64,000 bases of DNA, from positions 384,001 through 448,000 of the forward strand of contig CAWFQL010000012.1 of the NCBI GenBank assembly GCA_963817915.1, given 5' to 3'. Position 1 is the stretch's first letter. The number at the start of each line of letters is the position of its first letter. Origin of the DNA: an uncultured candidate division Zixibacteria bacterium. Its GTDB lineage: Bacteria; Zixibacteria; MSB-5A5; UBA10806. The position numbers were made by a program, and so were the translations under genes. The notes beneath the pieces are model-generated. The model saw only the letters and a program-made list of their open reading frames with translations, ran no database searches and was not told where the DNA came from. Positions 43,617 to 58,822 of the stretch are shown one piece after another.

Positions 43617-44285
43617 TTATCTCGCCGATGGGCAATCCGAGCAAGGCTCGGGCGCAGGGCCACCCTTGAAGTAATTGACTAAATATGTTACGTCGAGGCC
43701 GTTAAATGAGCATGAATTATTCACATCGCCCGCGACAAACCAGCTATTATCGGGAGTGCATTCACACATATAGGGAGGAGGATCGCCTCCCTTGAAGAAA
43801 TTGACAGAGTAGGTGGCGTCGAGACCATTCAACGTACCGCTATTATTTGCATCGCCTACAACATACCTGCAGCTTGCGAAATACGCGGTGTCGGATATTA
43901 CCGATATGGATGTATCACTGAGAACCGAAATCGCTCTAATTGAGAATACTGCCCAATCGCCCGGCGATGATAAAATAACCGAACTGTCGCAGCGGGCATC
44001 AGATGGGGAGACCCCCGTGAGCGAATCACTTACACTAATGATTATATATGACCAAATATACGATTGAACCGTATTTCCATAACCTGGAGGAGACCAGTAA
44101 ATTTTTAGATGCCCATCGCTATCATCATAGCGGGCAAATGCGTTTTCCATAAGGCATAAAAGAGAAATGGCCATGATGATGATCATAAACACTGGTTTCA
44201 GGATTCTGTAAAGTTTCGTATTCTGTTTTTGACTTATCACAACTGGCCAATCAAGAAGATTGTAATTTGCCCTAAGTTTCTGCAT
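43617..44285 (-). CDS. Secreted FN3-like domain plus dockerin-like double repeat
   Basis: Signal peptide (start may be internal); GHLKIYWSPPGYGN...WAVFSIRAIS; two GD.NNS...NGLD.TY.VN(F/Y)FKGG repeats. Confidence 0.75.
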   Translation of the reverse strand: MQKLRANYNLLDWPVVISQKQNTKLYRILKPVFMIIIMAISLLCLMENAFARYDDSDGHLKIYWSPPGYGNTVQSYIWSYIIISVSDSLTGVSPSDARCDSSVILSSPGDWAVFSIRAISVLSDTSISVISDTAYFASCRYVVGDANNSGTLNGLDATYSVNFFKGGDPPPYMCECTPDNSWFVAGDVNNSCSFNGLDVTYLVNYFKGGPAPEPCSDCPSAR

Positions 44286-44586: not shown

Positions 44587-44964
44587 ATGAAATTAACGAT
44601 TGTATTAGCTTTGTTGGTAGTCATTATTGGGCTCACACCGCTAGTAGCGTTGGCACAATTTAATGATCATGACGGACATTTGGTTGTTAGCTGGCAGCCA
44701 CCCGCCTATGGCAACCCACTCGACCATTACATTTGGTCATATACAATTAACGGTGTAGTCGATTCAGTTACCGGGACTTCTGCCGGCGTTGACACGCTAA
44801 ATAACTCCGTAACCTTGACTGCGATAGGCGATTGGGCGGTTTTTCATATTCGTGCAGTTTCTACGGTCAATGATACTTCAACCGTAGCTTATTCTGATAC
44901 CGCCTTCTATAATACGGGAGAAGGAATAGGCCCTCCGAGGGGGGTGACCTGGCAGGGCCCGTAG
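44587..44964 (+). CDS. Small secreted FN3-like protein, paralog of 43617-44285
   Basis: AAGGAGG RBS, signal peptide ending ALA-Q, GHLVVSWQPPAYGN...WAVFHIRAVS, C-terminus GIGPPRGVTWQGP. Confidence 0.8.
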   Translation: MKLTIVLALLVVIIGLTPLVALAQFNDHDGHLVVSWQPPAYGNPLDHYIWSYTINGVVDSVTGTSAGVDTLNNSVTLTAIGDWAVFHIRAVSTVNDTSTVAYSDTAFYNTGEGIGPPRGVTWQGP

Positions 44965-45221
44965 CCTTTGAGCTGCAGGCTCACCCCAATCCTACCAATA
45001 AATCGGGCCTTGTTTTAAGTTGGCAGGTTGAAAAAGAAAGTATCTATGATATCACGATTTATGATATTTTGGGCCGAAAAATTAAGACACTTCTCAAGCA
45101 GACAATGCCATCGGGTTTCTACAGTCAGCGGGCCGGCGAGGGTCTCGCGGCAGGCATCTATTTCGCTGTTATTTCTCGTCCTGACAATCACAGGGTTGTC
45201 AAGTTCACAGTCATTCGCTGA
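44913..45221 (+). other. Start-less T9SS/FlgD-like C-terminal domain encoded in the -1 frame of the 44587 gene
   Basis: Frame-3 translation: ...GGDLAGPVAFELQAHPNPTNKSGLVLSWQVEKESIYDITIYDILGRKIKTLLKQTMPSGFYSQRAGEGLAAGIYFAVISRPDNHRVVKFTVIR*. Confidence 0.75.
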
Positions 45222-45624
45222 TGATGGCATAGCGTTCCCCGATACAGCAAGGGTATCATTTACGAGAACAATCGCAAACGATACTGTCATCATAACATTC
45301 AATAATTTATCCTCCGATTCGGTGAGGAATTTCTTTTTGTCCGATTTTACTGACTCGCAAGTTGTCGAGATTGAATGTCTGGTGGATAATGCTCCATGCG
45401 GTAATCTTGTTGTTGAACGGGAGTTTAATAGTGTTTATGCTGGAAAATTTTCGACCCGCTGGACTATGGGGGGCTTCCTTCATACTGCTTATTTGAAATT
45501 TTTCTCTGAAAGTTATTCGAGTAATGAACTCAGTTGGAGCGCCGGCCATCCTTATGCTATTTTTGGAACGATGTCGACCAATATCGGCATAGGCCCTCCC
45601 CGCGATTTACACTGGGAACAATAG
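45046..45624 (+). CDS. Hypothetical secreted beta-rich protein; start uncertain (45028/45046/45061)
   Basis: Signal-like SISLLFLVLTITGLSSSQSFA-DD; C-terminus GIGPPRDLHWEQ resembles that of 44587-44964. Confidence 0.6.
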   Translation: MISRFMIFWAEKLRHFSSRQCHRVSTVSGPARVSRQASISLLFLVLTITGLSSSQSFADDGIAFPDTARVSFTRTIANDTVIITFNNLSSDSVRNFFLSDFTDSQVVEIECLVDNAPCGNLVVEREFNSVYAGKFSTRWTMGGFLHTAYLKFFSESYSSNELSWSAGHPYAIFGTMSTNIGIGPPRDLHWEQ

Positions 45625-45635
45625 AGGAAATGGTA

Positions 45636-46979
45636 ATGAAGCATATAGACCGTCGCAAATTTATAGGGGATGTTGGCAAGTTGGCCGGTGGGGCATTAAT
45701 GGGCGGCTATATACTGGATTCAGCGCTATTTTCCGCAGAACGGGCTAATGCAGCTTTAAGAAGCTATATATATTTGGCGAAAAACGGAACACCCGCCCAG
45801 AACGTTGCCAAGGTTTTCGAGATGCGTTTTGGAGGGATTGAAAATTTCATTGGGGCTGATGATGTAGTTGTTATCAATCCGAATGGGCAATGGCCAAATC
45901 AAGGCGGATCCAACTGTGCCTGTTGCATGGGGCTAATAGATCTTATTCTTGATCGGCCCGGCGGATTTAATGGCGAAATTATTTTTACCGAAAATACGCA
46001 GGGCTCGACTACTGGTTATTGGACCGCTTCCGGTGGCGAATTGCTTAGGAATGGACCATATAATTTCAATGACATGATCACTCATTATCACAATAATAGC
46101 CATCTGAATGTAAGCGGAGTACGGATAAGGAATAATCAATATGATGCCGCAAATTGGCCGATAATCAATGGCCCCGCCCAAGGGCAAGGATGGATCAGGC
46201 CGGAGTGGCAATCACAGACATATAGTTGCCTTTTTTACTTGCCATATCCTATTATTCGATCCCCCTACTCTAATAAGCTCATCGATTTGAAGAACGGCAT
46301 TTATGACAATGGCTATGATGGACAACCAGGTTTGAAATTTATAAAAATGCCAAATTTAAATAACCATGGCTATAATGGAAACCAGGACTATGCAGGTGTC
46401 ACAAGCGCAATCAAATCCTTTCTGGGGATAACTGAATTAGAGAATGGCACTGGCTCTTATTTCAATGATGGTGTTCATGCCAATATGCATGCCTATCACG
46501 CCAACGGCTGTTCCGGCAACGAACCTCAAAAGGCATTTTTGGCTGGAGAGGCGATCGGCGCTTGGATGAATCATTGCCGAAAACCCGATCTATTCTTAAC
46601 TACAGCCGAATGGGTAGGATGGGAATCTAGGACCGGTTCGGGCGCCAGTCAAGTTCGTACGGTTGGAATTGCCGAAGATCCTGTTTCTCTGGATTATTTT
46701 ATGAGTAAATATGTGTTATTGCCGAGCCATCCCCAATCACAATACTTTGATCCAGGCTTTGATATCTCGAACAATACGACCAGGCAGACACTCAATGGAT
46801 GTAATTCAATGGGGTACGGGACTGTGAATGAACAGGAAATGGCGGCGTATGTATACGATTTCAATTCGCCTTCAACATTCCGATTTGATATAGACCGAAT
46901 GATTAGAAAATTCAAATCTGGTGAAGCCACCCAACAGGACGTTTTGAATTTAATTGAAATGTATAATTCCGGTAATTAA
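45636..46979 (+). CDS. Tat-exported DUF362-like protein
   Basis: GAGGA RBS; IDRRKFI Tat motif; GGIENFIGADDVVVINPN, KMPNLNNH...GVTSAIKSFLG, DPVSLDY. Confidence 0.65.
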   Translation: MKHIDRRKFIGDVGKLAGGALMGGYILDSALFSAERANAALRSYIYLAKNGTPAQNVAKVFEMRFGGIENFIGADDVVVINPNGQWPNQGGSNCACCMGLIDLILDRPGGFNGEIIFTENTQGSTTGYWTASGGELLRNGPYNFNDMITHYHNNSHLNVSGVRIRNNQYDAANWPIINGPAQGQGWIRPEWQSQTYSCLFYLPYPIIRSPYSNKLIDLKNGIYDNGYDGQPGLKFIKMPNLNNHGYNGNQDYAGVTSAIKSFLGITELENGTGSYFNDGVHANMHAYHANGCSGNEPQKAFLAGEAIGAWMNHCRKPDLFLTTAEWVGWESRTGSGASQVRTVGIAEDPVSLDYFMSKYVLLPSHPQSQYFDPGFDISNNTTRQTLNGCNSMGYGTVNEQEMAAYVYDFNSPSTFRFDIDRMIRKFKSGEATQQDVLNLIEMYNSGN

Positions 46980-56565: not shown

Positions 56566-57698
56566 CTTTTTGTCGATTGCCAGGTAATATACCTTTCACC
56601 TTTAAAATACTCAAACCATGCCACTAATATTGAGTAATTTGCCATTACAAAGAAATATGGAATTTTGAATAGCTTGTTTTCTCGAAGTCTTTTAATTGCG
56701 AATGCTAAAAATGCAATGCCATAGAAAATAATTTGACAGAGAAAGATCGCCCGGTAGATGCTACCCCGATGTAGTAGATAAGTGTTGGCGATAAAAGCGA
56801 CTATTAACGCAAATGGCACTAGCCATCTTGCTAATTTATGGCTTAGCATTTGAATAGAGTAAAAGCCATATTTTAACGGATTTAAGATATATTTAAAATG
56901 CATAAGTACATCAATCCCATGTACAACTGTGCGCACTTTACGCTTGAATTCCTTTTTATCATCCTCAATTATATTATAGTATCCTATGGCGTCATCATCG
57001 GAGACAGTCCGATAACCATTTTTATAAGCAACTATAGGCAGATAAAAATCGCTGGACATATCATCGTGCCATTCAGCACACAACGAATGTCGTGTCGCGT
57101 AAAACGATCCGCTAGCCCCGATTAAAGATCCCACTTTGCTCTCTAATGCTCTGAGCACCATCTCATACCTTACATAAAGGCCTTCGCCCTGTGATTCATT
57201 GTTTTCATTAGCAATAATGTCTGTTCCGGAAACCACTCCGATCTTAGGATCGGCAAAATTACTTACAATGATCGAAATCGCATTTTCTTTTAGGAAAGTG
57301 GTCGCATCGGACAAAATGATAATTTCGCCACTCGACTTTTCTACGGCTTTTCCCTGGCAAAAGTGTTTCCCATGTCTCTCTGGAAATGAGATTAATATTA
57401 CGCCTTTATTTTGGTACGATTTTACGATTTCATCCGTCTTATCCGTGGATCCATCGGATGCAACTATAATTTCCATCTTATCTTTCGGATAAACAGTTCT
57501 GAGGGTGCTATCCAATTTTTGTTGAATCCGTTTTTCTTCGTTGTAGGCTGTAATTATCACGCTCACAAAAGGGAAAAACTCCTTTTTATTTACATTTTTT
57601 TGGATCATGTATGAGAGTATTTTTAAAAGTACAAAATATCCCAAATATGCCCAAATGACCAAAAATATCGCGGAGGTGAATGCAAAATAGATGGTCAT
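56562..57698 (-). CDS. Glycosyltransferase family 2
   Basis: SVIITAYNEE, SDGSTD, LSDAT; C-terminal TM helices. Confidence 0.9.
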   Translation of the reverse strand: MTIYFAFTSAIFLVIWAYLGYFVLLKILSYMIQKNVNKKEFFPFVSVIITAYNEEKRIQQKLDSTLRTVYPKDKMEIIVASDGSTDKTDEIVKSYQNKGVILISFPERHGKHFCQGKAVEKSSGEIIILSDATTFLKENAISIIVSNFADPKIGVVSGTDIIANENNESQGEGLYVRYEMVLRALESKVGSLIGASGSFYATRHSLCAEWHDDMSSDFYLPIVAYKNGYRTVSDDDAIGYYNIIEDDKKEFKRKVRTVVHGIDVLMHFKYILNPLKYGFYSIQMLSHKLARWLVPFALIVAFIANTYLLHRGSIYRAIFLCQIIFYGIAFLAFAIKRLRENKLFKIPYFFVMANYSILVAWFEYFKGERYITWQSTKR

Positions 57699-58822
57699 TT
57701 AAGAAGCTCCAGATATAACTCTTGATATTTACTAATCATTGTCTTAAGAGAGAATAATGAAATCGCAAACTCTTTTCCTCTTTCTCCCATCTCAAGCCTG
57801 AGTTCGTTATTCAAAACAAGCTCTGATATTCTATCGGCCAAACTGACCGGATCCCCCGGATTTACGAGATAACCTGTCTGGCCCGATTTAACTACTTCAG
57901 GTATGCCACCGACATTTGTGGCAATTACGGGTCGAGCGGCCATCATTGCTTCGACGATAGATACGGGCAAACCTTCGGATATCGAGGCGAGCAGAAATAT
58001 ATCGATACTTCTTAGAATTTGTGGGATATCCTTTCTGAACCCGAGGAATTTAATTTTATCTCTTAGTTGATAACTGTCGATCTTATCCGATATTCTATTC
58101 TTGATAGTGCCATCGCCTTCTTCTCCTATTAGCAGAAATTTTGCGCGGCGATTTTTCGAACAGACTAGTTTGGCGGCATCGACTAAAATATCATGCCCCT
58201 TTGGTGTCCTGAAATTGGCAATATTGGCAATTAGAATTTCCCCATCATGAAAATCAATCTCTTTTTTAAATGCTTCAATACTATAATTATTGTCTTTCGG
58301 ATATTCTGGAACGCCATTATAAATTGTTTGGACCTTCTTTACAGGGAATTTGGCTTTTAATAGATATTCATTCTTCATGAAATCGGCGACGAAAATTAAA
58401 CTCGACGCGAAATTTCTGATCAAAAAATACCTTAAATTTCTATATCGTTCGTGAGCGCCCGGAAGCGCAAGCTCATTATGAAATGTGCAAATTACAGGGA
58501 TGCCTAGAATCTTTCCTGCTATACTTCCGTAGAGATTAGCTCCAGGAAGATGAGCGTGTATCACTTTAATTTCATTGTTTCTGCAAAATCTGATTAACCT
58601 AAACAAAAATGCGAAATCCCATGACTTCTGACTGGGAATTACGCTGACTTGAATTCCATGTTCAGCCAGAAAATCATAAAACCAACCTGGCCGAAACAAT
58701 GCCACGCTTGGAATAAAAAGATCGCGATCGAGATTATTGGCAATATTGAAAAGAACGGTTTCCGCCCCGCCAGGTCCGCTGGTCTCATTGAGAAAAAGAA
58801 TATTGAAAGGCTTCCTCGTCAT
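57695..58822 (-). CDS. Glycosyltransferase family 4
   Basis: GPGGAE, KGH, EGLPVSIVEAMMA. Confidence 0.9.
   Translation of the reverse strand: MTRKPFNILFLNETSGPGGAETVLFNIANNLDRDLFIPSVALFRPGWFYDFLAEHGIQVSVIPSQKSWDFAFLFRLIRFCRNNEIKVIHAHLPGANLYGSIAGKILGIPVICTFHNELALPGAHERYRNLRYFLIRNFASSLIFVADFMKNEYLLKAKFPVKKVQTIYNGVPEYPKDNNYSIEAFKKEIDFHDGEILIANIANFRTPKGHDILVDAAKLVCSKNRRAKFLLIGEEGDGTIKNRISDKIDSYQLRDKIKFLGFRKDIPQILRSIDIFLLASISEGLPVSIVEAMMAARPVIATNVGGIPEVVKSGQTGYLVNPGDPVSLADRISELVLNNELRLEMGERGKEFAISLFSLKTMISKYQELYLELLK

Follow-up and report, generated by a model that had tools for sequence, protein, structure and literature searches.

In Escherichia coli dnaX, a cellular gene gives rise to two isoforms, tau and gamma, in a set ratio through a -1 frameshift at the heptamer A_AAA_AAG, aided by an upstream Shine-Dalgarno (SD)-like element and a downstream stem-loop; there the shifted product is the shorter one. 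In phage T7 gene 10A/10B and Bacillus subtilis cdd, the shifted ribosomes add a C-terminal extension read in the -1 frame, with cdd being helped by an upstream SD-like sequence. Outside mobile elements and phages, the chromosomal genes of bacteria described as using programmed frameshifting are, to our knowledge, few (dnaX, prfB, copA, cdd and csoS2). A probable further case has been identified in a 64,000-nucleotide (nt) window of contig CAWFQL010000012.1 (positions 384,001-448,000 of the forward strand; GenBank assembly GCA_963817915.1), from an uncultured candidate division Zixibacteria bacterium; all coordinates below are those of this window. A gene for a small protein with an apparent Sec signal peptide, here called gene 1, ends in a conserved tail and a TAG stop, and an intact C-terminal sorting domain (CTD) of the type IX secretion system (T9SS) lies across that stop in the -1 frame. 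A programmed -1 ribosomal frameshift in gene 1 is likely; it would produce two isoforms, a short one with the tail and a long one with the CTD. The two overlapping frames are as follows.

44587-44964, + strand: gene 1 in the 0 frame (frame 1), 125 aa, the putative short isoform; the open reading frame (ORF) ends GEGIGPPRGVTWQGP and then stops
44913-45221, + strand: ORF in the -1 frame (frame 3), consisting of a linker and a T9SS type A sorting domain; CTD core at 44961-45218, stop codon TGA at 45219-45221

The comparative analysis covers the anatomy of the locus, its conservation, selection on both frames and nucleotide constraint at the junction; from it we infer the ribosomal nature, place and efficiency of the shift and the destination of the isoforms.

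The N-terminus of gene 1, MKLTIVLALLVVIIGLTPLVALA, is hydrophobic over residues ~1-23 and, judged by eye, has the look of a Sec signal peptide; it is a helix in the AlphaFold model. That model (AF2) has a mean pLDDT of 73.3. The Foldseek matches listed for it are nearly all FN3 or FN3-like, the best with an E-value of ~2e-3 and the others weaker, and the target-normalised TM-scores of the top matches lie mostly between 0.45 and 0.70. Pfam fn3 (PF00041) scores 16.9 bits, below its cut-off of 25; the central beta-sandwich of the model is best termed an FN3-like domain. The 13-residue tail GIGPPRGVTWQGP forms the C-terminus, immediately before the TAG at 44962-44964, and these residues (113-125) have pLDDT values below 50 and are predicted to be disordered.

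The first-pass annotation, made from the letters of the window and their translations, had described an uninterrupted CTD in frame 3 with no start codon ahead of it. The frame is indeed open from 44913 to 45221, and its translation, YGRRNRPSEGGDLAGPVAFELQAHPNP...VKFTVIR followed by a stop, yields a CTD peptide that matches TIGR04183 at 32.5 bits (cut-off 23) and PF18962 at 28.9 bits (cut-off 27), the gene 1 product and the CTD peptide having been analysed as two separate sequences. In a whole-genome profile scan the same domain scores 32 bits (E 3.2e-7) and is one of 150 CTD profile matches in this genome, which also encodes a homologue of the translocon protein SprA (TIGR04189, 741.7 bits summed, in a 1984-aa open frame), the only T9SS component that was searched for. 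The peptide read from the -1 frame is a bona fide T9SS type A sorting domain. It ends at its stop, aligns end to end with the CTDs of orthologues that carry signal peptide and CTD in one polypeptide, and here can be joined to the signal-peptide ORF only by way of a -1 shift.

This split layout is well conserved. When a short-form profile was searched against 285 genomes of the phylum, 12 matched. Five of these (G000, which is this genome, G009, G016, G018 and G215, of families f1, f2 and f18) have the split form; six (G047, G083, G084, G123, G125 and G173) have an in-frame fusion of the FN3-like domain to the orthologous CTD, with no tail; and one (G001) has a dockerin-like module in place of the CTD. 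A looser search (E <= 1e-4) brought the number to 13 of 285, the sole addition being a weak 59-residue match in G006. Six of seven metagenome loci are also split, the seventh (L016) ending at its contig edge before the tail is reached, and an additional contig scan gave two loci only, identical to L003 and L005 over the compared stretch. With duplicates removed, ten split loci with readable DNA could be compared (L001, L003, L004, L005, L011, L012, L013, L014, L015 and L022), eight of them substantially distinct, with 60-74% amino-acid identity in the upstream domain. All ten keep both the 0-frame stop after ...W(I)QGP and an intact -1 frame CTD with neither a stop nor an indel inside it, which is the pattern that the first-pass annotation had proposed to look for in orthologues.

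The homologous proteins in the databases (JGI, ENA, Logan and NCBI) tell the same story: 31 of 33 are short forms of 109-140 aa, 28 of which terminate in QGP, while the other two are in-frame CTD fusions that lack the tail. The in-frame fusion group at the same locus also includes proteins P0037, P0038, P0041 and P0046. The source labels place one homologue in candidate division Zixibacteria and one related genome in the Ignavibacteria. A tail fused in frame to a CTD is found in none of the ten loci and none of the 33 proteins. Since the split is kept across loci and no such fusion exists among them, an assembly artefact, a private pseudogene or an on/off phase variation is very unlikely. The earlier proposal that one gene is programmed for a short and a long form is thus supported as regards the two isoforms, whose determinants are retained at every locus; its phase-variation version is not supported, with no locus and no protein in the "on" state.

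Both frames appear to be selected as protein. By the pairwise Nei-Gojobori method over the eight distinct loci, dN/dS is 0.243 in the CTD frame, compared with 0.92 and 1.54 in the other two frames. Over aligned codons 18-62, which lie outside both the junction and the overlap with the following gene (gene 2), it is 0.226 against 0.76 and 1.34, for 12 of 28 pairs that were computable and with synonymous sites near saturation (dS ~2). By these ratios, the CTD frame is under purifying selection. The variable positions are the 0-frame third positions before the stop and the -1-frame third positions just after it. Against a baseline of 0.25-0.45, synonymous codon identity reaches 0.62-0.78 across ~35 codons at the junction; it then drops, with a second rise at the gene 2 overlap.

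The 0-frame ending had been suspected from the start of being selected, on the ground that the next gene ends the same way, including the Trp, and both points hold: the tail is conserved, and gene 2 ends GIGPPRDLHWEQ before its stop. A motif GI[GDN]PP-x4-W followed by 1-4 residues ends 21 of the 31 fetched short FN3-like representatives (P0043-P0092; library clustered at 50% identity), and also ends gene 2 (45585-45624) here and in related loci. Since the motif recurs in this way at the ends of short representatives and of gene 2, the 0-frame ending is taken to be a selected protein feature; judged by its pattern of occurrence, GI[GDN]PP-x4-W may be an undescribed C-terminal docking or sorting motif.

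These results bear most directly on the suggestion that only the short form is made, and that the CTD is an untranslated relic of an in-frame fusion, kept for the signals of gene 2 and for an RNA structure with some other role. The in-frame fusion orthologues in half of the 12 matching genomes, the position of the gene 2 start inside the CTD, and the wide family of short proteins with the same tail, 21 of 31 ending no more than four residues past the motif Trp, would all suit such a history. A relic would have decayed, however, and this CTD is unbroken in all ten loci despite the divergence of their upstream domains, with the low dN/dS of its middle portion lying clear of both gene 2 and the junction; the suggestion is considered improbable.

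The junction itself contains the following elements, the pairings among which were predicted by RNAalifold from nine loci.

44931-44934, + strand: C_CCU tetramer (the last base of GGC, plus CCT), site B, the favoured candidate for the -1 slip; C CCT in 10/10 loci
44935-44940, + strand: 6-nt spacer between C_CCU and the stem; length fixed in 8/8 distinct loci, sequence variable
44939-44944, + strand: G6 run; its 3' part lies in the 5' arm of the stem, and it is complementary to the 16S 3' end
44941-44987, + strand: conserved stem-loop; GGGGTGA (44941-44947) pairs with TCACCCC (44981-44987), enclosing the 0-frame stop and an inner hairpin (44961-44976)
44958-44964, + strand: C_CCG then TAG, site A, the alternative slip site; CAR GGC CCR TAG invariant in 10/10 loci
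45004-45009, + strand: CGGGCC, complementary to both upstream GGCCC(G) copies; NCG GGC C invariant in 9/9 loci, the residue encoded by NCG varying (S, T, A)

No X_XXY_YYZ slippery heptamer is present, and the Z_ZZN tetramer C_CCU and a second C_CCR just before the stop are both found in 10/10 loci. The codons at site B are GGC CCU throughout, except for AGC CCU in L014. Where GIGPP recurs at the end of gene 2, its codons vary freely (GGC, GGA, GGG or GGT, then CCU, CCG or CCA), with GGC CCU in 1 of 12, so that the fixation of C_CCU in gene 1 acts at the level of nucleotides. In the E. coli assay of Sharma et al., 2014 (PMC4066793), C_CCU was among the six Z_ZZN tetramers giving a -1 shift with a downstream pseudoknot, while C_CCA and C_CCG lay close to background.

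The spacer that follows site B has the sequences CCGAGG, CCGCGT, CCGACG, CCACGG, CCAGTG, CCGAGT and CCCAGG. The stem-loop, 47-50 nt long, starts exactly 6 nt past the CCU and folds at -24.1 to -27.3 kcal/mol in all eight distinct loci; 96.8% of its cells are paired, compared with 29-55% when the partners are slid. Compensatory changes are seen at two pairs, one of them being GUG/CAC to GUA/UAC in L003 and L015. The UCACCCC arm consists of the His-Pro codons of the HPNP motif of the CTD, and the frameshift-type CTDs mostly have His (CAC) where the in-frame orthologues carry Tyr or Phe -- the outcome that would be expected from a need for UCACCCC. RNAalifold also pairs GGCCC with the invariant CGGGCC 40 nt downstream, and it is possible, from this complementarity, that CGGGCC at 45004-45009 serves as an outer stem or a pseudoknot partner. 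A conserved slip motif, a spacer of fixed length and variable sequence and a conserved structure are the classical arrangement for a -1 site; this and the activity of C_CCU in E. coli are what favour C_CCU as the site.

Several features could also serve a shift at site A. An SD-like sequence, GGGGGUGA, lies 12-15 nt upstream of it and is complementary to the 16S 3' end of this genome, ...GGATCACCTCCTTTCT. Ribosomes are known to pause with a stop codon in the A site behind a C-terminal Pro. Set against site A are its distance to the G run, which varies by 3 nt among loci, and the conserved stem, which encloses the site and does not lie downstream of it. The hairpin at the stop (UAGCY-UUCG-RGCUR) was considered as a classical stimulator for site A and rejected, as it begins inside the A site. 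A tandem-slip heptamer, G_GGC_CCG, was likewise rejected, the base before GGC being A in half of the distinct loci (L003, L004, L013, L015, L022).

The proposed mechanism is as follows. Most ribosomes would read the 0 frame to the TAG, giving a 125-aa precursor with Sec signal peptide, FN3-like domain and GIGPPxGVxW(I)QGP tail, while a fraction would slip by -1 within the 16-codon overlap and translate 86 further codons, those of the T9SS type A sorting domain. By the likeliest route, which receives about half of the weight, the Pro-tRNA on CCU (44932-44934) would re-pair with CCC while the ribosome is held by the stem-loop, possibly as a pseudoknot, giving the junction ...GIGP|SEGGDLAGPVAF... 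By a second route, given about a third of the weight, the peptidyl-tRNA-Pro on CCG (44959-44961) would slip to CCC with TAG in the A site, helped by GGGGGUGA, and the junction would be ...WQGP|VAFELQ... A canonical anti-SD and the tRNA-Pro species GGG, UGG and CGG are encoded in this genome. On either route, the shifted ribosomes would cross the start of gene 2 inside the CTD. The long isoform would presumably be handed to the T9SS and be exported or anchored at the surface, and the short one, which has no CTD signal, would be expected to stay in the periplasm.

The first-pass annotation had placed the slip at the G6 run (44939-44944). The run is there, with G6 also in L004, L011, L012 and L022, it falls within the 0/-1 overlap, and a -1 slip on it would give a plausible linker, ...GIGPPRGGDLAGPVAF; it could in principle act through a ribosomal Gly-tRNA moving from GGG to GGG, through an RNA polymerase stutter that adds a G, or through G6/G7 phase variation. 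As a slip site it does poorly: its length is not conserved among loci (G6, G5 or G4), the base before GGG is T in L003 and L015 (two of the eight distinct sequences), so that Gly-tRNA could not re-pair one base back, and in the conserved stem it is this run that makes up the paired 5' arm. For slippage by polymerase or during replication, runs of 4-6 are short. Phase variation predicts in-frame fusions of tail and CTD, which do not occur in the loci and proteins surveyed; with runs of G4-G6 and all ten loci in the same "off" frame, the locus does not look like a phase-variable contingency locus. Transcriptional slippage is unlikely for the same combination of reasons, the shortness of the runs and the lack of any "on"-frame locus or protein, and slippage at the G run in any of its forms is rated as quite improbable.

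If the -1 ORF were translated independently into a small protein of its own, whether through internal or non-canonical initiation or through termination and reinitiation, this would fit the conservation of and selection on this ORF. No ATG, GTG or TTG is found in it from its opening to the PNP motif in any of the ten loci, however, and in the orthologues the CTD is joined in frame to the same FN3-like domain. By established T9SS biology, moreover, a sorting domain lacking Sec signal peptide and cargo could not reach the secretion system, and such a protein would stay in the cytoplasm. This makes separate translation very improbable, and, the CTD frame being under selection with no start codon and no signal peptide or cargo of its own, a -1 shift from gene 1 is its only simple use.

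The quality of the assembly had been raised as a caveat in the first-pass annotation, which noted other probable indel errors in the window, and the concern was a sound one. The genome (G000) is 3.33 Mb in 22 contigs and 93.9% complete. Sixteen short-framed CTD matches were inspected, including that at the gene 1 locus, and in 12 of the 15 others a long ORF in a different frame, or an in-frame stop, occurs within the domain or immediately upstream. Examples are C11:1606-1782, C12:6832-6984, C17:468077-468274 and C16:392782-392919, several of the breaks lying within the domain; their frequency suggests either many assembly indel errors or a widespread decay of CTD genes. Separately, an IS200/IS605-type transposase-like ORF, so identified by motif reading, lies at C3 ~57480-57925, directly upstream of a truncated CTD ORF at C3:58086-58313. 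Since frame breaks are so common in this assembly, the gene 1 locus taken alone could not be told apart from an indel error, and it is the comparison across genomes that decides. Despite the broken CTD matches elsewhere, an assembly error or recent pseudogene confined to this genome is hardly credible, the same layout recurring in independently assembled sequence from four further genomes and at six metagenome loci, with the 0-frame tail and stop kept in 31 short-form clusters.

Several points nevertheless weigh against a programmed ribosomal shift in gene 1. C_CCU falls short of a canonical heptamer. With GGC in the P site, the Gly-tRNA cannot re-pair. Single-sequence folding gives z-scores of -1.0 and -1.4, which are not significant; the covariation amounts to two pairs and few independent events, with one and the same alignment used both to predict the structure and to count its pairs; and the whole comparison is based on only eight substantially distinct DNA sequences. 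Two of the 31 short-form clusters, known from protein only, have no terminal Pro: P0009 (...IQGQ) and P0036 (...WIQD). Selection on the 0 frame runs right up to the stop, which would fit a CCR|TAG site or a functional tail on the short form, and sequence alone leaves both C_CCU and CCR|TAG as candidates for the exact site. A search of public sequencing runs found no RNA run, and its one weak DNA run (share 0.12) gave a single 162-nt contig, at 44600-44761, off the shift site. Finally, in the assay of PMC4066793, the six active tetramers yielded just 0.26-5.6% in E. coli.

One possibility, which remains speculative, is that the frameshift acts as a fixed-ratio localisation switch, supplying a periplasmic docking subunit with a free tail and a surface subunit delivered by the T9SS for an envelope structure of set stoichiometry, and also tuning the output of gene 2. 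If gene 1 is frameshifted as proposed, a translational event, not a separate gene or promoter, would set the share of the protein at the surface and in the periplasm; if the localisation switch is also real, this would be the first known recoding event that decides the secretion-system address tag of a bacterial protein. A practical consequence concerns annotation: pipelines record such genes as short hypothetical proteins and leave the CTD unseen -- each of the 31 database short forms carries that annotation or none -- and counts of T9SS cargo in this phylum would then be too low. The proposed frameshift cassette is compact, at ~90 nt.

Two neighbours of gene 1 are of particular relevance.

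43617-44285, - strand: divergently transcribed paralogue of gene 1; its FN3-like domain, 47% identical, is fused in frame to two dockerin-like repeats
45160-45624, + strand: gene 2, sharing the frame of gene 1; encodes a signal peptide plus a domain of unknown family, the gene start lying inside the 3' end of the CTD

The C-terminal module that accompanies the N-terminal FN3-like domain is interchangeable: it can be a CTD in frame, a dockerin, a CarboxypepD_reg domain or, again, the short tail. The repeats of the paralogue score 21.6 bits for Dockerin_1, just below the cut-off of 22.9, and their presence hints that this organism has assemblies of the cohesin-dockerin type.

Gene 2 has its ribosome-binding site, start and signal-peptide codons within the last ~20 codons of the CTD, read in the +1 frame with respect to the CTD (overlap ~45160-45221). 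In L003, L004, L015 and L022 gene 2 starts with TTG after a GGAG-like or G-rich stretch inside the GxYFA codons of the CTD. The homologous codon in this genome is TCG, and its gene 2 start is uncertain (ATT 45160, CTG 45166, or an upstream ATG or TTG from 45028). The dual-coding CTD/gene 2 stretch is kept both in the frameshift-type loci and in the in-frame-fusion locus L007. In G016 (L003), the usual gene 2 is replaced by a different protein of 268 aa, on the minus strand of the locus (rc 2035-2838), with DIGPPRNVSW right after its signal peptide. Gene 3 (45630-46979, + strand) begins with a twin-arginine signal (MKHIDRRKFIG...) and has no Pfam or NCBIfam match, the protein atlas lead being to DUF362 clusters (score 0.87). 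Upstream of gene 3 this frame stays free of stops over 32 codons, across the tail region of gene 2, where it reads RHRPSP as does the -1 frame of gene 1; as gene 3 has its own start and SD, this likeness is taken to be due to chance.

A literature search found no paper linking frameshifting to T9SS cargo or to the Zixibacteria, within a coverage from which most subscription journals were absent. Like dnaX, gene 1 is a cellular gene with an upstream SD-like element and, by prediction, a downstream stem-loop; it would differ in that the shifted product is the longer one and gains a whole domain. The proposed -1 extension at the C-terminus would be of the same kind as in T7 gene 10A/10B and cdd. 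Compared with these, and with lambda G/GT, the added module is a secretion sorting domain, and the two isoforms should differ in location, beyond any role in assembly. The in-frame orthologues, with their fusion of FN3-like domain and CTD, have in common with gene 1 the N-terminal domain, the orthologous CTD and a gene 2 that overlaps the end of the CTD, though the GIGPP...W(I)QGP tail, the stop and the change of frame are all absent from them, and their CTD has Tyr or Phe in contrast to the mostly His (CAC) of the split form.

Published accounts of other recoded genes provide further parallels. Phage lambda G/GT (PMC5009743) resembles what is proposed for gene 1 in making a minority product with an extra C-terminal module in the -1 frame, entered near the 0-frame stop. 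The Z_ZZN-plus-pseudoknot sites of the IS3 family (PMC4066793) would share with it the slip of a single tRNA on a tetramer, followed by a short spacer and then a stable structure; unlike those transposase sites, gene 1 is a chromosomal gene for a secreted protein, and its structure encloses the 0-frame stop. In Shigella spa13/spa32 (PMC5009743) an extension produced by slippage runs over the start of the gene that follows, so that, as may be the case for gene 1, recoding can affect downstream expression, though there the slippage is transcriptional and the product belongs to a type III system. The mechanism proposed for gene 1 -- a programmed -1 frameshift leading to a C-terminally extended minor isoform -- is thus one that is already known; what would be new is the gene family, the lineage and the payload, a whole secretion sorting domain.

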